A DNA stretch of 32,100 nucleotides from Klebsormidium nitens (taxonomy: Eukaryota > Plantae > Klebsormidiophyceae), in assembly GCA_000708835.1 (NCBI GenBank), contig DF237765.1, positions 1-32,100 on the forward strand, given 5' to 3'. Under the pieces are notes generated by a model. That model did not search any database. It saw only the letters and a list, made by a program, of their open reading frames with translations, and had not been told where the DNA came from. Made by a program: the position numbers and the translations under genes. The number at the start of each line of letters is the position of its first letter. Positions within the stretch are counted from its first letter, which is position 1. This document shows, piece after piece, positions 1,069-31,394 of this stretch.

Positions 1069-3135
1069 TCAACCATCAGAACAATCCTACTGGCAGGCAT
1101 GGCGGAATCGACATTGACATTGGATGTACTTTGTAAGGCTCGTGAGAATTGCCTCAGATGCCAGTGCGAAAGGAATCAGCATAAGAGGGGATTCCGGGAC
1201 TTTCACCTGGTGCTCAGATTGCTCCGAAAAGACCCCAATTGCCAGCTCATGGGCTATCGTCTGCGGACTCTCTTTGATGGATGCGACTTTGATAGACTTG
1301 GAAGATTAGTCCTTCAGATGCCCGATGGAGACGAGAAGACACTTATCGATCTGGTCGGTCCTTGCAGGAGGGCACGGAGGGACAACAGCCTGCCCCTGCA
1401 ACGGACATCAGAGCTCAGGCCGGGCGCTTCCTTGGGCTCGTCGGAGAGGGCGAATGCCGCGTGATGGAACCCGCCGGGGTCGGACGGCCATTGCTCAGGC
1501 TCTATGTGTCCGCCTGGGATCACAACGGTTGTGGCAGGGCAAAGCGACTAGGGAAGCCCGACAAGACCTCTGCGCTCCTCGAGCAGGTCTGGTGGGACAC
1601 GCGAGGCCAGCTCAACTGCACGTGCGATCGAGGGCGCCTCACCGAACACGCGCCGTGCGTCCACAAGCTCACCATGGCGGCCCTCAGCGAGGGATGGTCG
1701 GCTGGGGCCGATCTGCCTACGGTGCAGGAGCTGAAGCGAGGCGTGAGGGTCGAGAGATTGGCCTCAGACGAGAGGGGGGACTACCTCGCCGTGTTGGACA
1801 ACCCTTCCGGTGCGTTGAGCCCCCAGCGGCGGATGTTGTTTTGCTCCACGGGGGGCGCTTGGTATTGCGAGGGCAAGCGAGACGGTTGCCCTTCGTTGAC
1901 CGATTGCTCGCACGTCAGCGCAGCCAGGTTTGCTCTCGAGAAGGGGCAGCTTTCCTCGACACAGAGTCTAGAGCTAGCACCAGAGACGCTCGCAAGGGCC
2001 GCGCAGTGGCTCGAGCGCTGGGACAGTACCCCTCCTCGGATTGGGGTGCCCACGGCGGGCGCAACTTCTGGGAGGTTGCGAGCATCCGTCCCGGATGAGG
2101 AGCGAGGCGAGGCTGAGCTGACGAAGGAGCAACGGTACCTCATGGGGTTGCTCGCAAAGCAGCCGCACGAGGGAGCGGCCTGTGCCGGGAGCTCGTGCTT
2201 CTGCAAGAGGCACGCCTACCTCTTCGGTGAGGCGCGGCCGCCATCTGAAGCAGAGGCAGGGGGAGGAGAGAGGATTACTCAGTCAGGAACGCACGCGTCG
2301 AGGGATGCCTCAGCGGGGAGTCCGCCTCGCAAGCGCTCGCGGAGGTCGAAAGCTTTTTGGGAGGCGAAAGCAAAGGCGCAAGTGCCGGCGCTTCGCAGCC
2401 GACCTCCGGAGAGGCGCGCGCCGGCCGCAGACGCTCGTGGCAAGGATGCAATCCACGGGTGGGTAGCCGCCTGCTCGGGCTGCACGTTGGCCTCGGTGGC
2501 TGCAGTGGGTGGGTGCAGCCATGGGGAGGAGGAGCGCATCACGTCTCCTGTGATGCTCATTGGCACCGAGGCGGTCCAGCTCACGAAACCGAAGCTGGCA
2601 AGGTTGAGCGACGCGACGAACTTCCATGATCCTTGGTTGACGGCATTTGGAGAGCCCCCGGTCCGGGTCAGCAAGCTCCGGGATTGGCACTTTCAGAAGC
2701 TTTCCGACCTGGGCCTGCTGAGCGCGCCCTGTCCAATAGAAGCCCCTCCGTGCGGCGGCACGTGGAAGGAGGTATGGGTCTCGAGAGGCTTCCGTCACAG
2801 CCTCGCAATGGAGCCAGAAGGTTCGGGTGCGGATCTACCACTGCACGTGTCTCGACCAGGCCCACACGATCCATTTCGACGGAGAGCACCTCGGCCTGTA
2901 CACCTGGAACCGGCAGACCCTCTTCGTTCAGGAGAGCCTCCAGCTCATCCTCAGAGGCATGCAGAAGGGCCATTCCTTCAAGGCGGAGCTATCCAGAGAC
3001 CAGGCCGCCTTCGAGAGGTCCCCGGGGGCGGAGGTCCTGAACGAGGAGACGTGGCGCAGGGCGAGTCTCGACTTCTTCAAGCTGGTCGGCCTCGGTATCC
3101 GAGACTGCTGCACGCTGTGCGGGCCCCACCCTAAG

Positions 3136-3356
3136 GTGAGCGCATCGTGCAGTACGGTCGTCTCAAGGCCGCAACTTGTTTGGGAGATTCGTAAATAGCA
3201 AGGGGGGCTGGGCTGCGGAACACATTGACAGATCTTTGTTCTTTGTGAAAGAAGGTGTTTCCAGAATTGCAAGTGGGTGCAATTGAAGTCCGATGTACAC
3301 GTATAATCTGGGCAAGTTTGGATTGCAACCGCTTCGGTGCGCACACGTACGCGTAG
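3136..3356 (+). other. Spliceosomal intron in the KDZ transposase gene
   Basis: AAG|GTGAGC ... CGTAG|GTG CTT CTG TGC GAC GGG. Removal gives the expected C..CGPHPKVLLCDG. Confidence 0.85.
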
Positions 3357-4891
3357 GTGCTTCTGTGCGACGGGATTGTCGGACTGGCAAACTCGGACGG
3401 CGGGAAGAAACCGGGCGGCCTCGGCAGCGCGACCCTCGACACGCGGCGCACCTTCCTGCATCCGAGCAGGTTCGCGAACGGAGAGCTGCTGGAGACGAGG
3501 TCGATCTCGGGCCGCGACTTCTGCGCAGCGGGCCTCGAGGGCGGCGGCATGAAGCGGAAGCTCATCCTCCAGCCTGAGCTGCGAGAGGCGATTGCACGAC
3601 TCTCTCAGCACCGCCCGAAGGACGAGAAGCTCGGGCGGAGGCTCTCAAAAAAGGAGTTCGCGAACCTGCTGAGCGCTCTGTCGAGCGATCCCTGTACCGT
3701 CAAAGGCTTCGGCCCCGGCGAGGCAGAGGGGGCGCTGCCGGAGGACGGCAGAAGGCGGATGCTAATTGAGCAGCGTACGATGGTGAGGGACAGGAACCTT
3801 GCGCTGCTGGAGCTCCTGAAGGGCATACAAAGGGACTTCGAACGGCGTGGAATGAATCCAAAAATTTGGGAGAGCTGGATATGCGAATGGACGGAACTTC
3901 TCTACTCCCTGGGCGCCCACGACAGCGACGAGGACCTCATCGGAGGGGATGCGCTACATGTGGTCCGTAAGCTTCTCCTTGGCAGCGAAGCCTCACTGGA
4001 GGACCGACGGTCGTTGGGGAGATCGGCACCAATCTTGAGGAGGGTCCTGGATGCCTACGGCGGGCTGACCTTCCCCGCCTTCTTCATGGCGGTCCTCCAT
4101 CAGCTTTACTTGCTCACCTTGCTTGCACGAGGGTTGACGGGGTTCGAGGCGGAGGGCCGACGAGGTTGGGTCTACGACGCGATCGAGCCATTCGACAGGG
4201 CTGTTTGGCTACTCGCGGAGGAGAGGGTACGGCCGTTAGATATTGACGAGCGCAGGCGACTAGAGGAGGCACGTGCCTCGGCGAACGCGCTGCTCCCGGG
4301 CGTGGAGCAATTGGAACCGAGCCCCCAGCAGTGGGGCTCAATGGGAGGGCGGGAGAGGGCTCTGCTCTTTGAGCGGCTGGGACGAGACGAGGACGGCGTC
4401 GAGCTATCCGAGCTTCCCGCTGGGCATAGCTTCAGCGCCGAGCAGGACGCGCTGGCGCGCTACGATTTGCCGGGGTGGACGCAGTGGCGCGGCTTGCCAC
4501 ATTTCAGCAGCTTCGAGCATCCAAACGGGCTCAGCAAAGGGGCTGAGGAGTTCAAGTGTGCTACGGGGAAATCGGTGACAGAGTGGGATTTCGAGAATGT
4601 GCCCGGCCTGGTCAAGGGTGGCGGAAAGGCGGGCAAGAAGGGGGCGGTTGCAAAGCGTCCCAATCGGAGCCGGGGCATGTTCGTGTTTTGCTGTCCGCAC
4701 CGGTTGATTTATGGGTTTCATGTCATGCTGAGGGGCGAGTCTCCAAGGGATCCGTTCACCGTGCTGTTCACGCGGCTGAAGCGAGAGGACTTGCCCGAAA
4801 CCCTGTGTTACGACAACGCCTGCGCCTTGCGCAACTACTGTATGCGCCGGGCCCCGGCCTTCTTCGCCAACGTTCGATTCGTCGTTGACAG

Positions 4892-5044
4892 GTGAGCGGC
4901 TGCCTTCCTTTGCTTTTTGCAACGGGTGCATTGGCTCTTGAGTCGAATGTGTACATTCAAGCCTATGTGTGGCAAACGAACGCGCCATGTAAGTGCTAGC
5001 TCAATCTCGATTGAGTGCTGATGTACACATGTCTTGTTTTACAA
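4892..5044 (+). other. Spliceosomal intron in the KDZ gene with a mutated acceptor
   Basis: Donor AG|GTGAGC after VVD. Joining to 5045 gives VVDRFHYSK, but 5043-5044 read AA (TTTTACAA|ATTTCAC) where AG is expected. Confidence 0.65.
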
Positions 5045-5373
5045 ATTTCACTACTCGAAGGCGGGGGCCGAGGTGCATAAGTGTGGGCCCAGCAACTCCG
5101 TGGACTCCTACGACGCGCTACGCTCGGTCAACACAAGCGCGGTGGAATCGGTCAACAGCTTCCTGAAAGGCTTCCGATCGCTGGGGTGGTACAGTAGCCT
5201 GGAAAGCTTCATGGTTATCCTTCCGCTCCTTCTGGACGCGTACAATGCGAGATTAAAGCGCGTTGACGATGCCAAGCTTTGCGTTGCCATTGCAGCGGGG
5301 GCATGGACGGCTGCAATCACGAGGGCGTTGTTGCACGGCTAGTTGGGCGCGCCAAATAGCCTCGTTTGTCGGT

Positions 5374-5846
5374 TGATACGGACCTGATACAAAAAACAGA
5401 GACTGTATCACTGTATCACCTTTTTCACTTGAATGAAAAAGGTGGACATTCGGTTCTCTGTAGACGCCGTTTATTGCTCAAGCGGTTGAACACTATGCAA
5501 TGTTCAGGACTCGTGACCTGAATGTCCATGTTCGCTGCGCAAATCGCAAAAAAGAGGGTGATACGCTTGATACGCCTGATACACTTTTCGTATAGCAGAG
5601 CATTATATATACAAATAAACAAACATTTTTTTAAAAAAATATATGATATACATTGTATTGTATCTTGTATCAAATGTATCACCCCTAAATGCATCATCTA
5701 TGCGTTGTCTACGCCCCTCCCGCCCCTGCTGGCCAGGACTGCATTTTTGCGGCCTTGAAATTGGCCCTGAAGGCCGTGACATCAGCGCCGTTCGGGTGCT
5801 GATACCCGCTTTTTGGGAAGCCCGAATGTTTGTATCAAATGTATCA
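5374..5846. promoter_or_regulatory. Iteron-type replication-origin-like region (TGATAC/GTATCA hexamers, AT-rich core 5583-5659)
   Basis: TGATAC at 5374, 5385, 5559, 5568, 5577 and 5800. GTATCA at 5405, 5413, 5667, 5676, 5832 and 5841, plus GTATCT at 5660. They form three head-to-head groups immediately 3' of the helicase stop codon. Confidence 0.7.
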
Positions 5847-5855
5847 CTCACCTTC

Positions 5856-8766
5856 TCAGTCATCACCCGCCGATTCCTCTTGCATTTCCTTCTCGGTCTT
5901 GAGACGGATTCCGAAAAAGCCTCCTCTCCTCCCGGATCCGTCTAGCATCCGGATCATCCTATTCTTTTTGCCATCTTGTGGCGTGCTCGTAAAGCCCTTA
6001 ATGTTCATCGCTCTCGCCAAGCTGTCCCCTGCTAAGCTCGTGTCGTGCCCACCCGCACACAGGAACTCGAAGAATCGGTCCACGAAGTCGACCTTCGTGA
6101 CGCTTAACGAGACGCCTGTCACGCACGATTCGTCGATGGAACATTGAAGCTTGTCGTTCTCCGCTGCATACTCCCGTGCCGCAGCACGGCATCCCTCCGG
6201 AATGGGAGAGAGAACCTTCGATTCCGGAGATTGCTCTTTCTTCGCATAGTACTTCATTGCGCCCTCCACGCAAAAGTCCAGTACATCCGCCGCTCCTTCG
6301 GCCGATTCAAAGTACGACTTGAGCGTCAGGTCCATTGGTTTGTGTCTCTTGTTGTTCCGATCCAGTTCGTCCGGTGACTTGAATATAAAATCGAACATGA
6401 GCAGCACGATCCTGCGGACCAACGCGGCATCATCGCTCGGGAAATGCGGCCTGAAATTCGTGAAGAGGCATAGCTTGTACCGAGGAATGTAAACCTGCGG
6501 TTTGCAGAAAAGCTCTCGCGCTTCGATAGGATTGCCAGAGGCCGCTTCTTTCAGAAACGATCCGTTCAGATGATCATCCTTCTCTGATTCGTCATTTGTA
6601 ACGAAGCGTTTCGACTTGATGCACATCAGATGGGACGAAGCTGCTGACGCGTTTGCCTTGAAAGTGGGCTTGATAAAGATCGCCTTGTTACCGGCCGTGC
6701 TGTAGCTTCCGAACGCCCGACGTATTGCAGTTGCGAGCACGCTCTTCCCGTTTGAACCCTCCCCGTTCATGATAATAATTAGCTCCTCGCTCGTCTCGCC
6801 AGTTAGGCAATATCCCAAAAATATCTGAAGCCAATCAATGTACTCCGGTGGGAGGACGTCCATCGAGAAAGTGCGGAAGCGGGCCGTTGAGCTCTTCGAA
6901 GCGCCCTTAATGTATGTGCAGGTAGTATTGTTGCATAGATCTTGCGGGTGATGCGGCGAGAGGTCGCCTGTTCGGAGGTCGATCACTCCGTTCGGAGCAT
7001 TGGCGACATGGTTGTCTTGATCGAATAGGTCCATTAGATCTTCGACGTAGAGCTCGTTGACAATGGCTGGCAAGCACTTTCGCACATCAGCAATGTCTTG
7101 CACGTTAATCTTGCCGAAGCTTGGTAAGCTCTGATCTCTTTGCTTGAGACATGCCTGTTCGGCGAGCTTGGTCAGTTCCGCTTGCTGTTTAGAGATGGTC
7201 CGAGTATTCTCCTCTGAGATTCCTTAAAGATCGGAGTGCTGCGAGCGCAGGTTTGCCAAGTACCTCTCCCTTTTTCCCTTGTACCATAGAAGGAGGCAGC
7301 CCATCTGAGAGGTGAAGGCGCTTTCGACCAGATTTGAGACGTCTTGCGCCCACGAAGCACCGTTCCACACGTAGAAGTACGATGTATCCTTCTTCTTCTC
7401 CGACTTGTCTTTCGTGGCGAGAATCCTCCCTTCGATCGCATAGATGTAGGCAAACAGTCGCCCCCAGATTGAAATATGCTTGAGGCGCGGCGTGCTCGGC
7501 CACGATCTTGAGGAGGAGCTGTTGCACCTCTTCGTTCCCTCGAGTGTATTGCGTGATGGCTTGCATATCGTCGAAGTGGTGGACCGGCTGCGTGGTCGCG
7601 TCTTGCAGCGCAGCTTTCAGGCTTAGCACACCGAGCTTCTTCGGAGGTCTATGGGAGCAATCCTGGCCATGGCAGCGATAGTACACGTTGCGCCCGCGCT
7701 TCAGCAGATTAAAGTTATTGCTCCCAGTGTGACGATGCCCGAGGTAGCACGTCCTCGGCCCTCTCGTCCTGTAGCAGAAGTACGTTCCGTATAGGCCATG
7801 CGGCAACGTGCTCGCGTACGTGTTCGAAGAATCACCGGCCTTTTTTCTCAGCATGTTGGAGAGCTCGGTCCTCAGGAGGGTCGTGTCGTTCGACGGTCTG
7901 TTAAAAGCTGATGGTTGGTCATCATTGCGGTTAGTTGGATCCACCTGATTAGCCAAAGCGCATACTGCCGGGATCTCGGGGCTACCCACTGATTGGATCT
8001 CACTGGTGGAGCCGCTATCACCGCCATTATTAACCAATGTGCATAACCATCTGGGCATTTCGGAGCAAGTTTCATAGCTTGGTGGACCGTTTAGCCACTC
8101 GTAGCTTAGAAGCTTCCCCTGACCGTCCCTGTAGCATGCCGGGTCAGCATATACGCAACCTCCAACGGAGCGACCATCAATACCATACGGGAGGTCGCCG
8201 CCCGATTTCAAGCCTGCAAAGTTCGACTTGCGAATGAGGCCGGGACTGTTGCTTTTAAAGTACAGGTGAAATCCATTTGACCCGGTCTTTGCCCTCAGTG
8301 TCGACGGTTCACCATGAGTGGCAACCAAGCGGTTCCAAAGCTCCGTCCCTGGAAGCTTCTTTTTGGTGCTTGAATTGTCGACATCTATAACCATCAGAGC
8401 GCTTGGGCCCGTAAGAATAGCAAGCCCGTTTGCATCCGGCACCTCTAAGAGGGCAGTGGCAATGGACTTTTGCCAAGAGTCTCGGTCCTTGATGTGCCCC
8501 CACCTGCTGGGAAAGACGGCGTCCTTCTTCCCCTTACCCTCATTACCCATCGAATCCCAAAACATGCGCACTGGAATAGCATATAGACCCTTGTCTGCGA
8601 GGTTCATGATTGCCTCCTTGATGTTCGGCGGCCCTGGGGCCTTGATCGGGTTGGGGGTCGAGGCCCTAGGACCGACGACATTGGATGCGTGCTCAAAGCC
8701 TGATGCAGCCATTCTTTCTACACTCATCACAAGGAAAAAATCGAACCGTTCTGAACGCGGCCACAT
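5856..8766 (-). pseudogene. Rep A: bifunctional primase-polymerase (Prim-Pol) + UL52/PrimPol-type Zn finger + D5_N + SF3 (D5/P4-alpha-like) helicase + C-terminal winged helix; intronless, 1 frameshift + 1 stop
   Basis: Prim-Pol motifs LMVIDVD, KTGSNGFHLYF and GIDGRSVGG. ZnF CYLGHRHTGSNNF..YYRCHGQDC. D5_N YFYVWNGASW and NAPNGVIDLRTG. Walker A GEGSNGKS, Walker B FVTNDE, motif C CLFTN, Arg finger VRRI. There is one extra base in the C5 run at 7461-7465 and an in-frame TAA at 7224-7226. The start (ATG at 8766 or a later ATG) is uncertain. Confidence 0.9.
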
Positions 8767-8790
8767 TTTATGCTGCGGTCGAATATCCCG

Positions 8791-9582
8791 NNNNNNNNNN
8801 NNNNNNNNNNNNNNNNNNNNNNNNNNNNNNNNNNNNNNNNNNNNNNNNNNNNNNNNNNNNNNNNNNNNNNNNNNNNNNNNNNNNNNNNNNNNNNNNNNNN
8901 NNNNNNNNNNNNNNNNNNNNNNNNNNNNNNNNNNNNNNNNNNNNNNNNNNNNNNNNNNNNNNNNNNNNNNNNNNNNNNNNNNNNNNNNNNNNNNNNNNNN
9001 NNNNNNNNNNNNNNNNNNNNNNNNNNNNNNNNNNNNNNNNNNNNNNNNNNNNNNNNNNNNNNNNNNNNNNNNNNNNNNNNNNNNNNNNNNNNNNNNNNNN
9101 NNNNNNNNNNNNNNNNNNNNNNNNNNNNNNNNNNNNNNNNNNNNNNNNNNNNNNNNNNNNNNNNNNNNNNNNNNNNNNNNNNNNNNNNNNNNNNNNNNNN
9201 NNNNNNNNNNNNNNNNNNNNNNNNNNNNNNNNNNNNNNNNNNNNNNNNNNNNNNNNNNNNNNNNNNNNNNNNNNNNNNNNNNNNNNNNNNNNNNNNNNNN
9301 NNNNNNNNNNNNNNNNNNNNNNNNNNNNNNNNNNNNNNNNNNNNNNNNNNNNNNNNNNNNNNNNNNNNNNNNNNNNNNNNNNNNNNNNNNNNNNNNNNNN
9401 NNNNNNNNNNNNNNNNNNNNNNNNNNNNNNNNNNNNNNNNNNNNNNNNNNNNNNNNNNNNNNNNNNNNNNNNNNNNNNNNNNNNNNNNNNNNNNNNNNNN
9501 NNNNNNNNNNNNNNNNNNNNNNNNNNNNNNNNNNNNNNNNNNNNNNNNNNNNNNNNNNNNNNNNNNNNNNNNNNNNNNNNNN
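8791..9582. other. Assembly gap (N run), possibly overestimated
   Basis: 792 Ns. Both flanks carry ATATCCCG (8783-8790 and 9583-9590). Confidence 0.95.
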
Positions 9583-9618
9583 ATATCCCGTTTTATTTCC
9601 TAGCAACTACACAGGACA

Positions 9619-9995
9619 ATGTCCATGGTCTACGAAGATGCTGCCAGCTTTGAGGACGACGCCAGACCGTGCCCGTGCCGCGCATGCGAGAACCACAGGC
9701 GTTATCAGCGGTTGCATCCAGAAAGGCACAAAGAGCAAGTGAGGGCATATTACGGTCGCAATCAAGAGAAGATCCTCCTGCAAAAACATATGCGCGATAT
9801 GTTGCAGGCCACACGAAGAAATTCCACGAACAAACTCTCGTGAGGCTGAAAAAGGCAGGATTCTCGATCCCACCGGACACAACGTCAAGATTCACTAAGG
9901 AGGACGGACTCTCTGGAGATATTCCGTCATATATATCAGCTGAGGCCTACTGGTGGATATCTCACAGTGCTGCGATCCCGCTCAAACCTCAATGA
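9619..9995 (+). CDS. Small Cys/basic protein (CPCRAC + YYGRNQEKILLQK motif), one frameshift
   Basis: ORF 9619-9843 and ORF 9669-9995 join if one A is added to the A5 run at 9782-9786, giving ..EKILLQK-TYARYVAGHTKKFHEQTLVRLKKAGF... It is divergent from Rep A and convergent with the recombinase. Confidence 0.55.
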
Positions 9996-10016
9996 CAAAG
10001 AGGTGTACATTGAGAC

Positions 10017-11037
10017 TTAAGCACCAGAGAAATTTATCTTTTCGCCATTTGGCAGGTAATGCTTTTCGTAAGTGGTCATCTGGATCGAAGACGAATGCAG
10101 CATTTTTTTTGCCAGCTCGTCCCTCTCGGCAATGCTGGGTGCATCTTTGAATGTATTTGAAATACATATTTTCCGTAAAAGGCAAGATCCGACGTTCGCG
10201 TCCGGAAAGATCTTAGAGCAAAACTTTGTCAGGTAGTTTCGAGACATTGGCGCATCAGGAGAGCGCATTCTGCTGAGGAGATAAGCCCTTGGAAACACCT
10301 CCAGACTTTCCGAAATGACATTGTTGGTACGAGTTGGCAGATCGATGGTTTTTTCGCCGTAGGTTTTTACCGTCTTGTAGTCTTTTAGCACGATTTGGAA
10401 GCGGCCTTTCTCGTATTCGAAAAGGTAATTACCAGTTCCGGCCATCAAGGCTTTTGCAGCAGAGTCGTCGTAGCAAACAATTGGCAGCTCGCTGTAGTCA
10501 TTTCTCACAGCTGGTGAATAGGTATAGAGACACAACACCAAGTGCCGGATTAGGGTAACCTTGTCTAGAACGGTCAATTGTTCTGCATGGCTTTTTAGGT
10601 AGAATGTAACGGTTCACTCGTCGTTGCAGCTCCACCCGCCTTTCGTTGATCTGTTCAAGCGATCTCCAGTTCTTATATTCCGATTCCGAGAGAACTTGCG
10701 GCGGAGGTCTGGCATTTTCCATCACTTCGCGAACCGATTGGTACCGTTTAAAGTAAGTTTGGTAGAGTTCAGTGTTTTGGTCGGATTTCAACTCCTTTTT
10801 GACAATGACGAGAATGGGGGTTATGCATGTTGCCTGCATGCTCGGCTTTTCCTCATATGTGTTTGCCAAATAGCCGATTATCCGGTTTGTATCCTTGAGC
10901 CACTCGAAACTCGACATATCAGCATCTTGACCGTTCAGTCCTTTGTACAGACGTGCAATATGACTGCAGTATTGGTTAACGGTCACCGGTTTCCGGGTGC
11001 CATCGTCAAAGACTTTCTGAAGAAGGTCTTGCGTCAT
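10017..11037 (-). CDS. Tyrosine recombinase resembling the OLV11-like family of virophages/Polinton-like viruses; one +1 frameshift near 10587
   Basis: LCLYTYSPAVRNDY (catalytic R), DYKTVKTYG (K), LLRKICIS (R), MLHSSSIQMTTYEK (H and Y). The N-terminal domain carries the ..NWRSLEQI motif. Removing one base at ~10587 fuses ORFs 10498-11037 and 10017-10577 (..KP-AEQLTVLDK..), ~340 aa. Confidence 0.85.
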
Positions 11038-11319
11038 TGGCGTGGTTACAGTGCGTGTCTCAGCCTGAGGCCCCCACTACATTGTCCGGCCGGTTGTCAA
11101 AAAGCGCACTACGATTTGCCCGGGGCCCGCAAGATACGGGGCTGTTCATCCAGCGGGGCCACGTCAAATGTACGGAATTGAACTGGCCAATGAAACAGGG
11201 GTGGTACATATACCACGTGGGTTGGTATAGGACCGCCGGTCCCGTCAGGCTGTGAGTGCCCGGTCACTAATTCAGCGTAACATCGCCTGCAGACACAGCC
11301 AATTCAGCTGCCCGGTGAC

Positions 11320-11477
11320 NNNNNNNNNNNNNNNNNNNNNNNNNNNNNNNNNNNNNNNNNNNNNNNNNNNNNNNNNNNNNNNNNNNNNNNNNNNNNNNNN
11401 NNNNNNNNNNNNNNNNNNNNNNNNNNNNNNNNNNNNNNNNNNNNNNNNNNNNNNNNNNNNNNNNNNNNNNNNNNNNN
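11320..11477. other. Assembly gap (N run)
   Basis: 158 Ns upstream of the recombinase. Confidence 0.95.
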
Positions 11478-12142
11478 GTCTATGCTATATTGAGTAGGCT
11501 GTAAATAATGCCCGGTACGGCCCGCGCGGTAGCCTTCGGCTAGTACCGCCAGCTAGGATAAACCTGCCGACGGTGAATTCTTGTAAACCTTGAATTTTCC
11601 GAGTACACTCGACGGAGAAAGTACTGCCGCAGTGTACAAGTGCAATTCTGACAGACTTGGACTCGGTCCCTATACGTGGCACTCATCGGACGGTGCCAGC
11701 CCCAGCCAGCGGAAAGTTCGGGACCCCGAAATGTACCTAGTTAAAGTGCGCTTTTTGACAACGGGATGGTCAATGTAGTGCCCTGCATACTTGCTTTATC
11801 TAGGTTATGTAGATAAAAATTATGACCAGCAGACGCGTCTTTCTTTTGTGGATAAGTGATTATAGGCGTTTGTATTTTTTGCAAAAGCTTTATCGTGTAA
11901 AAGCTGTTGTAAATTATTTGACAAAAGAGGGGTTCCGGAGGGCCTTTTCAAAGGGACTTTTGTTACAAAAGTGATTATGAGCCAGATAACGTGAATATGG
12001 TTGTACATTTTTCATATATTGAGCACTCTGACGCCATTCATTTTTCTAGAAGGGGCAACGCTCCGTTATTTGTTGCTGATGCCGACCTCTTTGCCGGGTT
12101 CGCAAGCAGTTCGAGGTCAGGTACTTCGGTGTCCTCATTTTT

Positions 12143-12586
12143 TTAGTCATTAGAATAACCTTCAGCTGCCAACTCAAGATCGCGGGTCCTATGAATTGAA
12201 GTGAGGTGCCTCCGTTCTTCAAAGGTATTGGCGCGTACATTTCGAGGCCGGTGTGCCTTCCGTTCTGCCTTTCTGGCGCACTTCAGTGCGCTTCTCCAAT
12301 TAACGTGTACAATGTATATTGAACCATGCAAGCCAGACGTATCCCAAAACGCATGAAACCCTTCCTTTACCAGGGATTTTACAACATTTCTAGTGATATG
12401 GGCGAGATTGTAGGGGTATGTTAACGCTCGTAAGCCAGCTAACATACCTATGTCCAAGTTGATACTCATGGAGCCTAACTCCTGATAGGAACGCATTATA
12501 GCGCACCTCACCGACCTACGTACCTTTTTGTCCATTTCGAGTACTGCAGTTCGGTCCTTCGGTTGATGACGAACGATCGAGTCCAT
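12143..12586 (-). CDS. Hypothetical protein (147 aa), intronless
   Basis: ATG-initiated ORF with globular-looking composition, followed by an AT-rich tract. No family recognised. Confidence 0.5.
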   Translation of the reverse strand: MDSIVRHQPKDRTAVLEMDKKVRRSVRCAIMRSYQELGSMSINLDIGMLAGLRALTYPYNLAHITRNVVKSLVKEGFHAFWDTSGLHGSIYIVHVNWRSALKCARKAERKAHRPRNVRANTFEERRHLTSIHRTRDLELAAEGYSND

Positions 12587-12687
12587 TCGATCCTATTAAT
12601 GTAATATCATAATAAAGCAAATTGTGCCAATTGCTGAGACGAACTGGAACGAAACGTGTGTGAAGGCGCTGAAGGCCTTCGGTGTTA

Positions 12688-13806
12688 CTACTTGTCAAGC
12701 GAGGTGTGGCACCTTCGAAAGGCCTTCGACAATCGGAACCTTCTCTCGAGTTTAACTTCAACCCAAGCCTTCCTTGCTGCATCGAGCAACTCCTTCGAAC
12801 GCTCCATCTGTTCCTCAAACTCAGCGAGTCTCTGTAGGTACACCGTATAATCTGTGACGAGTGCAGCCTCCACGTTCAGCCAAGCCTTCCAAAGCACCCC
12901 CCCTGCTTTCTGAGCGATGAGTCCGGGCTTGAAACGTTGCTCATTCAAAGGCGCAAACAACTCGGTAGCGTAGAGAGCCTGGATCGCTCTGTGAGACCGT
13001 TCCACTTCTCCCTTCTCAATGCCACGTAGCTTGTGGCTGTAGTGCCGTTGAAAGTCCTCTAGATGGTTCGCGCTTCTTCCCTGGTAACATGCAAAATGAG
13101 CACTTGTCAGTGAAATGTACACAGTTATTGCAGCTTCGGATTATGAATAATGACATATGTACACTCAAAGCATCACAATGATCAAAGATGTACACCTTTT
13201 AAGTAGATTGCTTGATTGTTAGGGCTTGACGAAGGATCCAGCTCATCTCACCTCGACCTTGTCTGGATGAAACTTGAGGGACCAAGACGAGTGACTCAGT
13301 TGGATCTCCCCCGAGCCGAACCTCGACTTCACCTCGTTGGGGGTGAATTGAGCGTCCGCTAGAAGCCACGAGATCGGAGGCGGCGTGTACCTCGGTGCTT
13401 CGGGCTCGGGGGGTTCTGGCACGGCAGTCAAGGCAAGAGCGCGGTACTTCGCGATATGGGGAGCGCGAAATATAGCCCGCTCTCTTCTCAAACTCGTCCT
13501 GTACTTCGCGACCGACGCTTGATTGCTTTGCTGCTTCATGCGCCTGGCGGCATCCGGGCTGAGACCTCGCAATCTAGAGACGGGGCGCTCGCTGGGCAAC
13601 TTCGCTGACTCGCAACCGGTCCTTGCAGGGTGGACCTCGAGAGCTTGCTTTGATGCAAAGTCCTTATTGCATGCATCTTCAGATTGTAATGAATGATGCT
13701 CCAGACAAACATAGCGGCCATCCCGCCTTTCCCAATGTTGTACGGCCGCTTCGGGTTCGGTTGGCGGCACAGGGCTTGGAGCATCGATGGGGTCTGCCAT
13801 CGCCAT
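12688..13806 (-). CDS. Two-exon gene: C2H2-like Zn finger + J-domain-like HPD motif + coiled coil
   Basis: Exon 13806-13252 has YVC..CNKDFASKQALEVH and EIQLSHSSWSLKFHPDKVE. Intron 13251-13081 has a GAG|GTGAGA donor, a CTGAC branch point and a TACCAG acceptor. Exon 13080-12688 continues in phase 0 (GRSANHLEDFQRHY..). Confidence 0.65.
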
Positions 13807-13989
13807 CCCCTGGCGACTACTTAAAACTGGTGGTGAAGTACATTCGCCGTTCAACTCCTAAGTCTCTAATACAACCGACGTCTGGCACTGACTGGCACCT
13901 ATTGGCGCCGATTGCGCTTCCTTTGCGCACTCGCCCGGGCCTGCCGAGCTTTTAAAAGGCCGCCAGACGTCCGACCGCACCCATTAGCA

Positions 13990-14350
13990 CATGGTCGCCT
14001 ACACCGTGTCGAAGGCGATGGGTCGGGGTCTGTCCAAGCTGTCCAAGCTTTACGTGCATGAAGTATTTCCATTGTTCGACTTGATGACGACACCAGTCCA
14101 TCAGTCCGTTGTAATTGCTAATGTGGACTCGAGCAGCGGCCTGTTCGGGTTGTCCAAGCTCTGGCGCGAAGTTGTCTGTCATTCCGTTTGCTGACGGCAT
14201 CAATCTGTTGTAACTGACAGCGTCCACTTGGGCAGGGCTGTCCAGGCTGTCCAAGCTTTTGCGCACAATCCGGGAGATGGCCTCGGCATGTGTCCAGGTG
14301 TCCAAGCGTTCTACGGAACTTATTGTGGCCGCGAAATGCTGACGTCACCA
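13990..14350 (-). repeat. TGTCCA/TGACGTCA module array 3' of Rep B (inverted relative to the 22.2-23.0 kb array)
   Basis: Paired (C/G)TGTCCAAG motifs at ~14030, 14150, 14240 and 14295, and GCTGACGTCA at ~14338. Exact reverse-complement matches: 14175-14195 with 22322-22342 (21 nt) and 14094-14117 with 22410-22433 (24 nt). Confidence 0.85.
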
Positions 14351-14680
14351 TAACTAGAAGTTGCAGACTTTAGTGCCGTTGAGCTTAGACATTTCATACG
14401 CTAGATAAGCCACCATTCAACTGTGACGAATGCAGACCTTGATTTTTAGCACGAATGTTTAATAACAGTGATGTTTCTCACAGACGATGTTATATCCAGC
14501 ACCAAGCTTTTCGAAAACACGAACGACCACTGAATCGATGAAGTTGAATGTACACGAACCTACTTCAATAAATACACAATCTAAAATACAATATTAGTGA
14601 GCGCGCCAGCCTGCATGGACAGTCATTCTGAGTCACTACCATGCCTATTGTACAATGGGAGCCTCGAACCCCTATGATAA

Positions 14681-17600
14681 TTAGAATTCATAATTGCACT
14701 TGATTCCTGGATAGTAATACTGCCACGGCGAGTCGTTATTCCTAAGCCTCTTGAATCTCTTCCGTTCCATTCTTCTTTTCAGCTGCTCTTTGGAGACGGC
14801 CTCGGAGGAAAAGCTATTGTAAAGCCCAACAAAATCATTCTCCAAAGTCGAGTGCCCTTCCCCGAACTCGCAGTGCTGGTCGAGAAATAGCTGCAGCTTG
14901 TCCATCTCGCTCAGGTACTCACGTGTCGCGTTCCGCACTGCCTCAGGAGGAAAACCGAGCCCGTTTGCGCTAGCATACCACTCGACGGAGCCGCGGGCTA
15001 TCCACGAAAGGACCTGCCGAAGCGACTCCTCCTCCTTCATGCGATCCTTCAACCCGTCGTCTCGGAGGCGGTGGGTGGCGTTGGTGGGATCGAACTTGTC
15101 CGCGCCCACATAGCTGTTAGGAAACGGCATTACTCGCAAACGGCGTATGACGTTGTCCTGGACTGCGGACGCAGAGATGGTGGGGGGGTAATTCGTCTGA
15201 ACGAAGGGCGTGTGGGTGATGTTGAACTGTACGTTGCGCCCATGGAGAGGGCGCGCCTTCGTCTCGCCCCCTCCGGTCATTCCAAGGACAAGCCCAAGAT
15301 CGACCTGCTCGCCTTCGGCCGTCTCGTCGGTGATGGCGAGCCGCACGCCCATCAGCTCGTAGATGTAGTCCGTAGGCGCGTTCTTGGAGGCGACTCTCTG
15401 GCAGGGAGCCGTGACGACCGCGTCCTTAGACATGAGGCCGTAATAGTCTCCGGTTGCAGCCTGCAGCGTCTCCTTCAGGACCCCTTTCCCGTTTCCTGCA
15501 AAACGACGGAGAAACGAGCTCAACTCAAGATAACAAAGATGATTCAGCAAGCATTCACGCCTTCAGGCACACGGAAGAAAGCTGGTCGGATCGCTGGTCG
15601 TGGTATAATGAGATGCATAATCTGTTGATTTAGAGATCTATCAATGTTTAAGGCCGTCCATCCGCATAGAGCTCCAAACTGGTATATGGGCTCTTTTGGC
15701 AAACGCGATGTGGCCAAGAAGTCGCACAGAACGCTGAGAAGCGAAAAACCGTTGGACGACTAGCTACGAGCGGCCAGGCCTGATGCTACTTGACATCCAA
15801 AAAGCACATCACACACTTTCTGGACGACAAGAATGGAAACAAAACCGAGGCCTGGCTTGAACTCAGCAGCAATCTCCTTCCAAGACTAAGCCCGACAATC
15901 TAGAGACCTTACCTCCCGCTCCGAGCAAGAGCACAAAAATCTCCTCCTGGGTACGGCCGTTCAGGGCCAGCCAAACAGCTTCCGCATGTAGTCCACCAGC
16001 TCGGAGTCGTGGTTGAAGATGTCGCCCAGAAAAGCATCCATGAGAGGGCTTGGGTAGTCGATCCCCTGCAAAGACAGGTTCTTGGTGTTACGGACGGATA
16101 TACAGGCTCCTTGCCTTTTTGCCTCAAAAGCAATGGAGCAGATCGTAGATGCACGTCCTCAGAGTTAAATGTCAGCAAGATTGTAAAGAGCCAAAATCAC
16201 AACGGAAGAAGAATCCAGCGGCAAAGGATGCACGCCAACGCCTTGCTCGTGTCTTTCACAGGCAGCCAAAAGTGCGCGCTTTCACGAGACCGTAAGAGAA
16301 CGAGAAGGTCGTTCAGGGGCTCCCAGCAATCAATAGCGTGCTAGCCAACGAAGTCCTTTTGGAAGCAGCATGGGGTGCTTACCTTGAAGTCCGTCTCCGT
16401 GATCTTGGAGCACATGTATTGGGGCCTGTGCGCATCCAGCTCGCCCGTCCTGAGAAGGAGCACGCCGTTCTTGACGTTCAGGATATCCGGGTTTGCGTCC
16501 AGCTGCTGGGCGAGGTCGTCAGCGGACAACTCCCCCTTAATGAGCTCAAGCGTACTGGACATCTCACGGGTGTTGTTGTAGGTGCGCAGGTGCTTAAGCT
16601 GCAGGAATAGCTCCTCCTTCTTCTCCTCGTCAGTGGTCGCCTTAATCTTTGCGCTCCACTCGTCCCTCACTCGCGCGTACACGATCCTGAGCTGATTGAT
16701 GAGGACGTGCTTCACCAGGAAATCGCTCTCATTTGACACGAAGCGCCGCCCCTCCCAATGCCACCAGCGTTTCCCATCGAACCACAGCCTGCAGAAGGGC
16801 AAGTAGGACGAGTTAACCGAGGCTGGCGAGCACAATTCGGCGTGAGCTCTTGAGAAGCGCGTCCAGAGCTCTGAATGCATCAAGCAATTCTGGTCTACCA
16901 ATCCCCTTCAACTTCCATAGAAAGCCTGCTTAACCTGCACTTATAACCGCACCAAGGAGTCCAGAATAAAGTTCAAAAAAAACTCTCAAGAGATTGAAGC
17001 ACGATGATGACGTCAGCAATATCAGGCCGACGAAATCTTACACCAAACCTTGGACACTTGGACGGACTGCCAAGCCAAGCCCAGTCCGTTGTCCAAATGT
17101 CCAAGCTTCTGCCAAAAGATTCGAGCAAAAATCTGAGCGTGACGTCAACAATATCAGGCCGACGAAATCTTACACCAAACCTTGGACACTTGGACGGACT
17201 GCCAAGCCAAGCCGAGTCCGTTGTCCAAATGTCCAAGCTTCTGCCAAAAGATTCGAGCAAAAGACTGAGGATGACGTCAGCAATATTAGGGGAAATCTTA
17301 CACTAACCCTTGGACACTTGGACAGACTGCCAAGCACCTGAGACCTTCTCAATTGCAGCAAACCTCTTAAAAACAAAAATGGCTCAAAATCACCTTTTCG
17401 CTGTACAAGCGTTGGTAAGAATGATCTAGATGACGGGCGCTCCTACAAAAGCGTTTTATTGCATGTGCCAGACGAAGTTTGCCCACCTGCCACAACTCGT
17501 GTACATGGCAGCAGCAATCTTGCTGCCGCCGACGTCCCCCTCAAATGCCCAGTAGTCCACGAAGTCCTTGTGGAGGGCGTCGATCGCGCTGGCGTCATCA

Positions 17601-20600
17601 GCACGGAAGGCACGAATCTCGCCACCAATCATGGCCTCTGAGCGCGTGAGCTCTCCGATCTTTCGCAAGGGGCGGACCCCCTCGCACTCCGAGCTGTTGC
17701 AGCAATACAGCAGGGCCCTGCCGCGTACCAGCACGCTGAAGTTGTTGGAGCCGTCGTGGTGATTGCCGTTGGGGCAGCGTCGGGGCCCGTCCACCCGAAA
17801 GACGTACATCGGGCCGTTGACGCCCGTCTTGAGGCGATCGAAGCGAGAGGCGGTGTCGCCAGTATCCGCCACGCAGGCCTTGACGCGCTTCAGGATCGCT
17901 GCTGGGGGAGGCTGCTGAGGGTCTTCGACCGGACGAGGGGGTCCGAAAGCTGCGGTCTGGGCCTCGCTACAGAATATAAAAGAGTAAAGCATCACAACGC
18001 TGAAGGAAAGAAAGCAAACATGTCGATGTTCTCACATCATAGATGGAAACTGGGACAGATGAGTCAGGCTACTCCGGGCCCGGCTGTCCACCCACTGATC
18101 GACATATAAAACTACNNNNNNNNNNNNNNNNNNNNNNNNNNNNNNNNNNNNNNNNNNNNNNNNNNNNNNNNNNNNNNNNNNNNNNNNNNNNNNNNNNNNN
18201 NNNNNNNNNNNNNNNNNNNNNNNNNNNNNNNNNNNNNNNNNNNNNNNNNNNNNNNNNNNNNNNNNNNNNNNNNNGACAAGAAATGCCTTTGCTCTAGAGC
18301 TTGGACAACTTGGACAACTCGGAGAGGCCCCGACCCGATCGACGCGATCAACTACAGTGGCTTTTGGCGTCAGCATTTGCGACAAGAATAACTTTGTTCT
18401 AGAGCTCGGACAGCTCGGACAGACCCTGCTCGGACTTCCAGGGGACCGAATCTGAGGATCAAGGACTTGAGAACGTACCCGCCGCGGCGGCCCCCGCCAC
18501 CGTCCTCGCTTGGTGCTTCGTCGCTCTCGTTGTCTGGGGGGGCCCTGAGATTGGAGCGGTCCGGCAGGATCTCTTGGTCCCACTCGTAGCACCGGCACGT
18601 GCCGTCGAGCCCCACGTAGCTGCTGGGAGCGGTGTACAGCATTCCGCCACGCCCGCGCACGTCGATGCCCACCGGTTCGCCCTTGTACCGGATCCGTTTT
18701 CTATTTGCGCAGTTGCGCAGGCCGGCCTCTGCGGACTGCGACAGGGAGAAGAGGACGTGCATGCCCCCGTTGCCGGTGGTCAGGCGGGGCGTGTCCTCCA
18801 GAAAGAGCCCGTGCTCTTCGAGCATACGTTCGACCGCTTGGAAGCCCCCGTCCTTCACGTCGACGTCGACCGCTAGGATGTCGGACGCCTCCGTGACGAT
18901 GGCGATGGTGTTGCGGGACTCTTGGAGGCAGTTCCCGAGGTTGGCCTCGTTCCAGGGCTTGCGGGAGGGCCAGCGACCTGGCACCTTTCGGACTTCACCG
19001 TTCGGAAAGCGTTTCTCCTGGAGATCGTGGGTGAGGGTCACGACGCCGAGCTCGTGGAAGTGATGGGCGGCAGCCAGGATGGGGTCCGGGCTTGGTCCCT
19101 GCAGAAAGAAGAAAGCAATCTCAGATTGATTGCAGATTGATCTACATAATACTCCGAGCGCGATCCGTTCACAGACGCTTGACAATCCGAGTGCCTACAC
19201 TTTCGGACTATGCCCCGCAGCAAATCAGCATGACGTCAACAAGAACGTAGCCCATTTGGTAAAGCCTGGACGCCTGGACAGCCCATCACTTGCCAGACCA
19301 TGAATCGAAATCGGCACTGTCCAAGTTATTCCGAGCTCCACAAACAAACAGCTAAGAGCTTGTGGGATGACGTCAGCAAGACAGCGCCGCGAATACTTTG
19401 GCAAAAAACTTGGACACGTGGACAAACGCACAAAGCCAAAACTTCCACTAAAAGCAAGCCCATCAGGGGCGAACGGCGACAACTCGGGCTGTCCAAGGTG
19501 TCCAAGCTCTAGAGCAAAGTATGTCCGGTTTCAGCTTGCTGACGTCATCAAGTCCTTGCAGCTGCACTCGAGCAGAGTGTGTCCGAAGGGTCCAAGCTGT
19601 TCCACCTTTATTTATGTTCTTTCAGGGCTGGAGTGATGACCTCAGCAGACAAGCTTGAGAGACGGCTCTTCCAGGCGCCGGAATGATGACGTCAGCAAAA
19701 TTTAGCTGCATAAAACTTGCGCCAAACTTTGGACACTTGGACGGACCACCGAGCCCGGACCAGCAAGCCCAGACTGTCTTGAACCGACTTGCAAAAGGCG
19801 AGTTCTGTCAAGTTCGGCCGTGAGTCTTGAGATAGCCTGTACAATGACGTCAGCGGCTGATTCCGGCCAAGCCCGTTGCGTCATCAGCACCAGAGCGCAT
19901 TAAAGGATTACTTCCACGCCCACTTCGCGCACCTGGATTGGCGGCCAAGTGCAGAAGGGTGCTTCGAGCTCCAAATAATGAGATGAGTCAAACCCGAGCC
20001 TACCTGGCGGAAGGGCGTCGGCTCCTGCACCGCAGCGCGGGCGTTGGCGCGCGAAGGAAGTGCTGACGTGGCCGCAGACATGGAGGCATCTCGGACGGAT
20101 GGCCCGGCAGTAGCGGCCGTTGTCGCTGCGACGGGAGCCATCGGTTCGCCGTGCTGGGACACGGCCTGCACAATTTCCAAGTCGATCACATGAGAATAGA
20201 GAAGCCGAAATCAATCATCTCACCCGAGTTAACCGCACAAGAAAAGCAAATAAGACCACAACCGGGCAAGCTCCGATCAGATGTTAGGAAAGGAGACACG
20301 CCGAAGCTGATCGCGCGCGCATCAGCTTTACGAATTCGTGTACATCGTCAAACAATGTCGTGAATGCTTGGGAATGTACACGAAGGGAGGGCAAATATGA
20401 TCGACTGTACACTTTCATACGAATTGCTCAGGCCTCAACTCCGACAAGAATTTGATGCAACTTCCGAAAGACAGTCGACCATGGAAAGTGGGCACACCTG
20501 GCGCGCAAGAGACTCCCTGCGCTCCTGCCCCGAACGAGGGTCGATGCGGCAGATGCTGAAGTACTGGCGCAGCTCCTCGGATTCGCGCTCGTCGTCCCAG

Positions 20601-23600: not shown

Positions 23601-23893
23601 TCTGCTGACGTCATCCTACAGGCTTCCACATGATTGTTTGGCAAAAGCTGAGACAGGCAACTGGTGGGCACATAATGCTCTTGCTATATCGACAGCCCCG
23701 GATCCTATTCCCTCTATCAGTGAATCACAACGGAGAGTGTCCAAAGAAGTGTCCAAGGAGCGCGAGGTTTGCCCTTGGAACCCACTTCAAGTTCTTTATC
23801 CAACTCAGACTTGGGAGCAGCAACGTCGATTGCGCTTCAAAGAACGACAGACTGAAACTAGACACATAGCGAGCACTCACCTGCGCTATGCAT
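14681..23893 (-). CDS. Rep B: 12-exon gene, small Zn/coiled-coil leader - 2A-like peptide - acidic linker - Prim-Pol - UL52-type ZnF - D5_N - SF3 helicase (~1218 aa; two 1-nt deletions)
   Basis: Exons: 23893-23881, 23466-23323, 23182-23057, 22169-22104, 21931-21778, 21013-20498, 20165-20004, 19098-18479, 17966-17487, 16788-16383, 16065-15913, 15495-14681. All junctions are GT..AG. Phases match once 1 nt is restored at the C4 run 21875-21878 and at ~15970. Motifs: ILAVDVD, TTGNGGMHVLF, GIDVRGRGG; CPNGNHHDGSNNF..LYCCNSSEC; LNVKNGVLLLRTG; Walker A GAG|GNGKG, LAITDE, FVQTN, IRRL. Exons 8-12 are well supported by homology. Exons 1-7 rest on splice signals and phase only. Confidence 0.8.
17008..17340 (+). 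repeat. 132-bp tandem repeat x ~2.5 in Rep B intron 9
   Basis: TGACGTCA at 17008, 17140 and 17272 (period 132). Each full unit contains the dyad TTGGACACTTGGACGGACTG..AGTCCGTTGTCCAAATGTCCAAG. Confidence 0.95.
18116..18274. other. Assembly gap (N run) inside Rep B intron 8
   Basis: 159 Ns adjacent to TGGACA repeats (18298-18422). Confidence 0.95.
19231..19860. repeat. TGACGTCA/TGGACA modules in Rep B intron 7, including a 180-bp dyad 19368-19547
   Basis: TGACGTCAGCAAG (19368-19380) pairs with CTTGCTGACGTCA (19535-19547), enclosing TTGGACACGTGGACA and TGTCCAAGGTGTCCAAG. Further modules at ~19231, ~19687 and ~19846. Confidence 0.85.
21888..21931 (-). other. 2A/StopGo-like peptide TLLMIGCVESNPG|P
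   Basis: Codons ACC CTC TTG ATG ATT GGT TGC GTT GAG AGC AAC CCG GGG CCG directly after a CAG acceptor. Matches (D/G)(V/I)ExNPGP except for C at the D position. Confidence 0.65.
22219..22990 (+). repeat. Degenerate ~100-bp tandem array x8 in Rep B intron 3
   Basis: Units begin TGA(C/T)GTCAGCAA at ~22219, 22319, 22435, 22525, 22619, 22718, 22818 (degenerate) and 22921. Each is followed by TTTGCGCCAGAGCTTGGACAGCTCGGACA-like cores and related variable linkers. Confidence 0.9.
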
Positions 23894-26287: not shown

Positions 26288-26578
26288 CACTGAAGTGGCT
26301 GCAATCTACTCAAAAGCAGTCTATCGCCAACATACTGACAACGCGGCATACGTGCGATGATGCACCATCACGAACGTCTGATCAGCTACAATCTTTAAAC
26401 GACAAGGGTGTTGTTGGCAATTGGCCACCAATATGACGATTCAAACTTACTTTGCTGCCGCCCCTTGAACATTGTCAAAACCGTTCAGCGTGCCCTTAAA
26501 GGGCGGCATGTTATACGAGTTCGCGCGTCAGCTCTGAAAAGGCTAGGTAGTTCGCTGCTATTCCGATTTGCTTTCGTG

Positions 26579-31371: not shown

Positions 31372-31394
31372 CATATTCACGTTATATTTAACCG

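Follow-up and report, generated by a model that had tools for sequence, protein, structure and literature searches.

P4 and the SaPI/PICI elements are bacterial satellites in which a tyrosine integrase is combined with a primase-helicase, an adjacent iteron array, and att direct repeats, which also carry helper-exploiting and regulatory genes (AlpA/Stl, terminase, and capsid-size factors), and which are mobilised inside the particles of a helper virus. The P4 alpha and SaPI Rep proteins bind the repeats, melt an AT-rich spacer, and prime their own synthesis. Among eukaryotic DNA elements the Cryptons possess a tyrosine recombinase as the sole enzyme and have no capsid, replicase, or origin array; Helitrons and Replitrons are characterized by an HUH Rep endonuclease, accompanied by a PIF1 helicase in Helitrons. 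Transpovirons are associated with giant viruses.

In Polinton-like viruses (PLVs), which are defined by major capsid, minor capsid, and A32 ATPase genes (PMC4642659), the succession of repeats, primase-helicase, and tyrosine recombinase constitutes an end module that was proposed to be mobile (Barth et al. 2024, PMC11296320), and the OLV11-like recombinases (Yutin et al. 2015, PMC4642659) are common in these viruses. In a 2026 preprint the AEP-type replicases, which are correlated with tyrosine recombinases, were proposed to act as autonomous mobile elements; in the same source transpovirons are described by pPolB and DDE genes, and the AEP-SF3 cases are found inside viral genomes or without an integrase (bioRxiv 10.64898/2026.10.13.758929).

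The stretch of Klebsormidium nitens DNA analysed here (contig DF237765.1, 32,100 nt, further called the window) contains a unit of TGATAC repeats, a Prim-Pol/ZnF/D5 helicase gene, a small divergent ORF, and a tyrosine recombinase gene. The identities of the genes, the lesions of the window copy, and, for other copies, the joint inheritance and the order of the genes were established, and there is about an even chance that the unit is a stand-alone, capsid-less PLV-type replication-integration module and that its family moves as a capsid-less unit. The region includes the following features:

5374..5846, no strand: TGATAC repeat arrays, three head-to-head groups with a mostly 9-nt period
5856..8712, minus strand: Prim-Pol / Zn-finger / D5_N / SF3 helicase replicase, with a nonsense codon at 7224-7226 and a frameshift at 7461
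8783..9590, no strand: 792-N gap, with an identical 8-mer on both sides and no family gene
9619..9995, plus strand: small divergent ORF, two frames here (74 aa and the rest), no family match
10017..11074, minus strand: OLV11-like tyrosine recombinase, with a frameshift near 10587, the MITE lying between it and its start codon (11786-11788)
11075..11780, no strand: CACTA-type MITE, with 36-nt inverted ends starting CACTA and a 3-bp CCC duplication, holding a 158-N gap
12143..12586, minus strand: accessory ORF A (147 aa), orphan
12691..13140, minus strand: accessory frame B, an orphan of 150 codons without an ATG start
13243..13806, minus strand: accessory ORF C (187 aa), with a Cys/His cluster and, at the C-terminus, an HPDK motif
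13807..14010, no strand: non-coding stretch, alike in diverged copies, the right end of the unit not being reached

The preliminary description claimed a minimal element within about 5-5.7 kb; this span was not confirmed, nor are the genes intact ORFs. Related copies are collinear to about 14,010, and the conserved unit runs from 5374 to at least about this position (8.6 kb traced), with three further ORFs beyond the recombinase and at least 7.1 kb of net collinear conserved sequence among copies. The window copy is a pseudogene, an inactivated member of a diverse multi-copy family, which carries a frameshift in the recombinase, the MITE in the third codon of the same gene, and a stop codon in the helicase. 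The absence of introns was borne out for the replicase and the recombinase, whose alignments with intact relatives show no gap of intron size, and both assembly gaps of the region (792 N and 158 N) are joined straight across in related copies. Since the likeness continues to about 14,010 and a second element starts there, the window copy may be cut short; no terminus, att site, target duplication, empty site, or circle was seen in the window and the listed joints of related contigs (contigs only, the small-share runs X9-X20 being left aside). The dead copy, the larger conserved unit, and the multi-copy family with recombinase-replicase co-inheritance were three points absent from the preliminary description.

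Within 521 nt the repeat region holds 12 copies of TGATAC/GTATCA, while 1000 dinucleotide shuffles gave 0.3 on average (maximum 4), the commonest hexamer of any single shuffle reaching 6 copies; only one further copy lies in the other 30,470 nt of the window. The middle head-to-head group flanks a spacer of 82% AT, and the array at 5660-5689 is collinear with the 3' end of the helicase gene in two other contigs of run X1 (joints 5685/5689 to 6144). The earlier view of these repeats as origin-like iterons next to the replicase agrees with this enrichment, and the arrays are likely an origin and/or an end region. The window shows no long terminal inverted repeat that would pair with the left array; an 8-nt inverted match of 5368 with 13872 is at chance level and was rejected.

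All parts of the previously reported Prim-Pol-ZnF-D5 gene were recovered on the minus strand: Prim-Pol (E 1.7e-17), D5_N, DUF5906/SF3, and a Cys/His cluster with a weak Ogr/Delta match (E 0.086). The model TIGR01613 scored above cutoff for the relative P0014, and the only relatives with solved structure were three sequences of the putative primase C962R, an asfarvirus protein. Of 19 helicase matches 11 showed 53-100% identity, followed by a drop to 27-32%, and the substitutions among copies were distributed as 4/6/17 over codon positions 1/2/3 (p 0.004, best-supported rows only). At position 7461 both contigs of run X1 are without one letter, the matching contig being otherwise identical to the window over 4300-8736, and from this comparison the frameshift is likely an assembly error.

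The recombinase gave no meaningful match in sequence searches against Pfam, PHROG, NCBIfam, PDB, and phages, and its fold was confirmed on an intact relative, which is 68% identical to the catalytic half of the window recombinase. An earlier model from an 8-row alignment reached pLDDT 41, while the AlphaFold model of the relative P0003 reached 83 and produced 37 PDB matches at E<=0.001, including Cre, XerA, and lambda Int (TM about 0.4), with all listed rows to rank 46 being tyrosine recombinases. The best viral fold matches were giant-virus and virophage proteins (E 1e-9), and the name "OLV11-like" denotes kinship with a virophage protein and a fold match to an Aureococcus virus, OLV11 itself being outside the alignment. 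The catalytic residues R, K, R, H, and Y are largely retained (in 20, 23, 19, 20, and 19 of the 23 aligned rows, respectively), in accordance with the original identification of the gene. A contig of run X1 matches 10314-11101 with 0 differences, and because of this identity the frameshift is not an assembly error. The insertion in the third codon, presumably of CACTA type as judged by its CACTA end motif, is skipped by contigs of run X8, which join 11070 to 11782/11784, and a very deep contig of run X1 joins 11319 to 11478 across the 158-N gap.

The 792-N gap lies inside the span first claimed and was unmentioned there. In contigs of runs X1 and X5 position 8782 (or 8780) is followed directly by 9592 (or 9599), and the relative P0017 has 24 codons between the anchors 9614 and 8739, where the window has 74 non-N, non-duplicated bases; the gap is likely either an insertion of ~0.8 kb flanked by a target duplication of 8 bp or a gap of wrong size. 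The small divergent ORF does begin on the plus strand at 9619 as described before, and in the window copy it is split into two frames, the contigs of runs X1 and X6 carrying one more base at 9786.

The accessory ORFs A-C gave no meaningful PDB match, and an Rfam search gave no match. A collinear patch near ORF A (12019-12116) is present in another contig of run X1 and one in frame B (12868-12973) in other contigs of this run; frame B may be a second exon of the gene next to it. ORF C has a weak DnaJ match (E 0.059), and its listed substitutions are distributed as 13/6/18 over codon positions 1/2/3 (p 0.05). At the right side the alignments with contigs of runs X6 and X7 extend to 13980 and 13999, and loose 30-mers of these contigs, judged by eye, still resemble the window. 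A 2456-nt contig of run X1 (depth 21, read depth not being taken as copy number) ends at 13342, and joints of equal depth run in the order recombinase - A - B - C. The "skips" in related contigs were considered as deletion derivatives, and this was rejected, since that contig agrees with a diverged copy that is collinear and lacks the MITE.

Separate inheritance of recombinase and Rep, named beforehand as evidence against the element, was not observed. The K. nitens gene models KFL_001520110 and KFL_003670050 fuse the recombinase upstream of the replicase on the same strand, both among plant-like genes, the recombinase of KFL_003670050 representing a different lineage in a quick tree. One contig set carries both genes collinearly, and 3 of 11 replicase-bearing contigs have the same size in nt as one of 32 recombinase-bearing contigs (even 2 were reached in 0 of 100,000 null draws), the other 8 having no size-matched partner. 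Recombinase matches with 48-100% identity to P0003 (29 of 32) formed one side of a branch with 100% SH-aLRT in this tree of 57 rows, from which partial family members and matches beyond P0099 were left out. No close relative was found in JGI metagenomes and GTDB contigs, or in IMG/VR viral contigs scanned with a few exact peptide patterns; the searches for related loci yielded only two virophage-like contigs with a recombinase of 24% identity. No description of the Klebsormidium family was found in the literature outside subscription journals, Repbase, and bioRxiv supplements; the gene-neighbourhood figures of Bellas 2023 and Gallot-Lavallee 2017 may show loci of the family.

The reported lack of capsid, A32 ATPase, protease, and pPolB was upheld by a scan of all 259 stop-to-stop frames of at least 60 aa in the whole window; in the virophage L002, which served as a virophage and not PLV control, the same scan found both capsids. 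No capsid or packaging gene is implied in the gaps either. As the 8.6 kb traced revealed no capsid gene, copying and re-insertion within the family likely proceed without virions. The far end was not found, and for this reason the word "capsid-less" stands for the window copy and the traced sequence and not for the whole family. The recombinase would cut out and re-insert a circular form, and the replicase would bind the TGATAC arrays, melt the AT-rich spacer, and prime its own synthesis, as expected from knowledge of these families; a PLV or virophage may have been the source of the unit, which would then stem from its replication-integration end module. A broader proposal is made tentatively, at well below even probability: a new eukaryotic self-replicating superfamily of 7-9 kb capsid-less circle-forming units (tyrosine recombinase, Prim-Pol/SF3 replicase, and iteron origin) that escaped PLVs, expanded in streptophyte algae as the counterpart of P4/SaPI, and is possibly packaged by resident PLVs or giant viruses. 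The giant-virus satellite suggested earlier received no specific support from the tests run.

The main alternative, a serious one that nevertheless falls clearly short of even chances, is an endogenous PLV end module with the first accessory genes, the capsid half having been lost or replaced by the neighbour and intact relatives being ordinary PLVs. The gene order is that of PLV end modules (PMC11296320), the recombinase type is common in PLVs, the right end is not found, and a virophage contig that bears capsid genes also carries a distant relative of the recombinase. Seven PLV/virophage-type capsid loci exist elsewhere in K. nitens, a number similar to the 6 annotated loci of the element family, these capsid loci being unplaced relative to scaffolds 152, 367, 828, and 1006. 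Against it, none of the seven capsid-bearing contigs (Bellas 2023) equals in size the four gap-free pieces of the window, the scaffold of the window has no capsid, the collinear sequence of at least 7.1 kb contains no virion gene, no long inverted repeat matches the left array, and close relatives among IMG/VR viral contigs are lacking.

It is improbable that the module travels as cargo in a larger composite transposon, the same unit including the KDZ/CxC4 transposase flanking it on the left or the second, intron-containing Prim-Pol/D5 gene on the right (14681-19098) with its GGACA repeats. About 30 nt separate the KDZ stop codon and the first TGATAC, one contig of run X6 spans 5267-5584, the right-side likeness reaches the GGACA repeats, and Amoebidium has Plavaka-flanked giant repeats rich in tyrosine recombinases (PMC11244446); however, another contig of run X1 departs from the window at 5538, the X6 junction may be an orthologous site in a related strain, GC content is 60% on the left and 48-53% inside, and the recombinase profile found no second recombinase in the window. 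An origin from an endogenous giant virus (NCLDV) that carried such genes is highly improbable: the closest folds of the recombinase, which are NCLDV proteins, the C962R relatives of the replicase, and NCLDV core genes in Klebsormidium (PMC5294986) agree with it, while no NCLDV core gene occurs in the 32 kb, other copies have plant-like genes on both sides at a distance of 6-7 gene models from each other, and the architecture of the replicase is that of Prim-Pol and the P4 family.

It has been proposed that in small eukaryotic DNA viruses the end module with replicase and recombinase is capable of independent movement (PMC11296320; bioRxiv 10.64898/2026.10.13.758929). If intact copies are capsid-free, the Klebsormidium family would provide a chromosomal, multi-copy case in an alga that is sequenced, can be cultured, and is close to land plants. 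It would make this idea directly testable via ends and circles, and would be a source of a tyrosine recombinase adapted to eukaryotes and of an origin/replicase pair of compact size. Should intact copies continue into capsid genes, the family would be only the replication module of undescribed Klebsormidium PLVs.

In comparison with giant endogenous viral elements the locus has no NCLDV core genes and no viral-gene-dense region. The window lacks the pPolB and RVE integrase of Polintons/Mavericks, the reverse transcriptase/RNase H of DIRS-type retrotransposons, both the pPolB and the DDE gene of transpovirons, and the HUH Rep of Helitrons and Replitrons, in place of which Prim-Pol and D5/SF3 are present. 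Like Cryptons, the element is eukaryotic, would be mobilised by a tyrosine recombinase, and has no capsid in the sequence traced, but its replicase is co-inherited and its recombinase groups with viral OLV11-like proteins. The P4/SaPI-like layout proposed earlier stands as regards integrase, primase-helicase, and iterons, including the inversely oriented repeats around an AT-rich spacer directly downstream of the replicase, the TIGR01613 affinity, and the lack of capsid, yet this layout is equally that of the PLV end module (PMC11296320); the host is eukaryotic, the recombinase is outside the P4/phage-integrase sequence family, and no regulator, terminase, helper-hijacking gene, or att repeat was detected in the window. 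With mobile AEP-SF3 replicases the element shares a primase-polymerase-SF3 and tyrosine recombinase module without morphogenetic genes, differing in that the family is recombinase-bearing and recurrent in the host genome. With PLVs and virophages it shares the gene order and the giant-virus/virophage-type recombinase; of the PLV characters the OLV11-like recombinase and SF3 primase-helicase, variable genes in these viruses, are present, capsid and ATPase genes are absent in the window copy and the window, and, with respect to terminal inverted repeats and a length of 15-30 kb, only the chance-level 8-mer match was seen. It differs from these viruses in that the 8.6 kb traced yielded no capsid, penton, ATPase, or protease, that arrays of a short hexamer take the place of a long inverted repeat, and that many diverged copies are present in the algal nuclear genome.

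Other copies of the family were examined via protein records, contigs of public sequencing runs (designated X1, X5, X6, X7 and X8) and published tables. Run X1 may be the source sample of the K. nitens assembly, therefore its agreement with the window is used as an assembly check and carries no weight as independent support. The features considered are the following:

1296-5342, plus strand, spliced KDZ transposase gene with a CxC4 domain
5374-5418, 5559-5681 and 5800-5846, three head-to-head groups of TGATAC, spacing mostly 9 nt
5856-8712, minus strand, Prim-Pol/ZnF/D5 replicase
10017-11074, minus strand, tyrosine recombinase
11075-11780, inserted element of 706 nt (MITE) in the third codon of the recombinase; its inverted ends begin with CACTA, and CCC is duplicated
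12143-13806, minus strand, accessory frames (ORF A, frame B and ORF C)
14681-19098, minus strand, second Prim-Pol/ZnF/D5 gene, 25-30% related to the first, with four GT-AG introns

Across its helicase half the window shows 100% identity with the K. nitens gene model KFL_008160020. Prim-Pol, D5_N and DUF5906 were matched by Pfam in the replicase, and an intact relative exceeds the P4-family primase cutoff and matches phage primase PHROGs (E 1e-58), in agreement with the primase-helicase assignment of the preliminary description. Its solved-structure relatives are only three C962R primase sequences; among 19 long homologues 11 are 53-100% identical, five being K. nitens models, and the remainder fall to 27-32%. 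Two lesions interrupt the window gene, a stop (7224-7226) and a frameshift (7461). In both X1 contigs that read through 7461 the C run is shorter by one base, which in the matching contig is the sole difference from the window over 4300-8736; thus the frameshift probably arose in the assembly, described as 454-based in PMC4052687, while the stop is genuine.

Within 5340-5860 there are 12 copies of TGATAC or its complement, against a shuffle expectation of 0.3 (maximum 4 in 1000 shuffles), and the other 30,470 nt of the window hold one. The middle group flanks a 77-nt spacer with 82% AT, and inverted repeats around an AT-rich spacer are the hallmark of P4 and SaPI origins. The origin-like iterons proposed earlier are thus present beside the replicase, and by this analogy the array is a putative replication origin. 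Its part at 5660-5689 is collinear with the helicase 3' end in two further X1 contigs. Some 30 nt separate the end of the KDZ gene from the nearest TGATAC, and this junction is spanned by one X6 contig.

The recombinase was not named by any sequence library searched. The structure model of P0003, an intact relative, built from a 23-row alignment (pLDDT 83), matches Cre, XerA and lambda integrase in the PDB, and R, K, R, H and Y, which we take to be the catalytic residues, are retained at the expected positions, with the first His replaced by Cys; the gene is thus a tyrosine recombinase, as had been claimed. The suggested kinship to the PLV (Polinton-like virus) and virophage type also held: giant-virus and virophage proteins outscore the PDB enzymes. 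A quick tree sets 14 of 14 family rows apart by a branch with 100% support. The structural matches include Aureococcus anophagefferens virus, a named carrier of OLV11-like recombinase (PMC4642659). The recombinase profile found 5620 representatives at E<=0.001, and a relative of 24% identity lies in a virophage contig that also has the two capsid genes. The frameshift near 10587 is borne out by an identical X1 contig, and X8 contigs read straight across the 706-nt element, joining both sides.

Recombinase and replicase appear to be inherited together. In KFL_001520110 and KFL_003670050, the latter with a recombinase of a different lineage, the recombinase is fused upstream of the replicase in the window's order. 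Besides, three of 11 replicase-contig sizes (6906, 20656 and 60401) match one of 32 recombinase-contig sizes, self and the two fused models being excluded, and eight have no match; two matches arose in 0 of 100,000 random draws. The co-inheritance check raised in the preliminary description therefore came out in favor of pairing.

The minimal size of 5-5.7 kb claimed there was too small. In other X1 contigs the recombinase is succeeded, in the window's order, by conserved patches at 12019-12116, 12868-12973 and 13243-13342, and likeness persists to 13999 in contigs of X6 and X7 (one study), so that the conserved unit spans at least 5374 to about 14,010, that is, 8.6 kb, or 7.1 kb without the two insertions. 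On the left one X1 contig diverges from the window at 5538; no common terminus, att site or empty site was seen among the matches listed in alignments to public-run contigs. The sides of the 792-N gap (8783-9590) are joined directly in X1 and X5 contigs, and the relative P0017 crosses this region in 24 codons, the window having 74 usable bases there; the 158-N gap lies within the MITE and is bridged by a contig. By these joints and the P0017 alignment neither gap hides a family gene.

An HPDK-encoding patch of ORF C (13243-13300) is common to many other contigs, with a candidate GT donor after it at 13251; together with frame B, ORF C may form a single spliced Zn-finger/J-domain-like gene. The second replicase, which when spliced reads without interruption to the end of exon 3 and breaks in exon 4, has no recombinase found beside it, and since a viral-type replicase here bears introns, it suggests a separate, long-resident element family. 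Within 14016-23620 lie 27 of the window's 28 GGACA dimers (8-9 nt period, units of about 100-130 nt), usually preceded by the TGACGTCA word and none within the exons modelled for the second replicase; paralleling the 9-nt-period TGATAC dimers, they may be cognate binding sites. Further right are a 169-nt repeat family (25571-26291 and 31378-31761, inverted copies included), a 57-nt inverted pair (30791/31136) and a palindrome (31875-32002). A 195-nt direct repeat of 84% identity lies near both scaffold ends (195-395 and 31192-31371).

The earlier claim that the element is capsid-less is borne out for the window. None of 259 window frames (stop-to-stop, at least 60 aa) matched virion, packaging, protease or PolB genes at E<=0.005, and the same scan recovered virophage capsids in the control contig L002. 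This 18-kb virophage-like contig (L002:472-17557) has Sputnik-type capsids, a DVNP gene, a YqaJ nuclease and an 884-aa protein, which begins with an OLV11-like recombinase, making up its N-terminal third, and then carries a lipase-like GHSLG motif. In Bellas et al. 2023 study a frameshift-tolerant capsid screen over all contigs is reported, with seven K. nitens loci on contigs of 12,919-60,623 nt. The four gap-free pieces of the window (8790, 1737, 6638 and 13,826 nt) share their size with none of these seven, assuming that the pieces are contigs of that assembly. Thus the window is without a capsid locus, while the genome does carry PLV/virophage-type capsids, roughly as numerous as the annotated loci of the recombinase-replicase family.

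That the family is a stand-alone module is the likeliest reading, at about even odds. In such a module the element would be excised as a circle by the recombinase and copied by the replicase, which would bind at the TGATAC array and both prime and unwind the element's DNA; the recombinase would then re-insert the copies. The window copy itself is incapable of this cycle. The main rival, a tentative but serious one, is that the stretch is a PLV cut short at the start of the second element, and it agrees with the order of repeats, primase-helicase and recombinase described for the PLV end module (PMC11296320). The nearest genes flanking the fused models in the PMC4052687 supplement, which tabulates only genes whose best hits are in plants, are 0060/0140 and 0030/0100 and enclose seven (KFL_001520110) and six (KFL_003670050) models, leaving room too small for a giant virus and sufficient for a PLV.

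Both parts and their pairing are already known in PLVs and virophages, and it has been suggested that such modules can be autonomous (preprint 10.64898/2026.10.13.758929); no description of the Klebsormidium family was found in the literature search. As the preliminary description stated for Cryptons, DIRS, Polintons, Helitrons and transpovirons, and likewise for PLVs and P4/SaPI, at least one defining feature of each is missing from the family, which in its working is nearest to the PLV end module or the P4/SaPI core.
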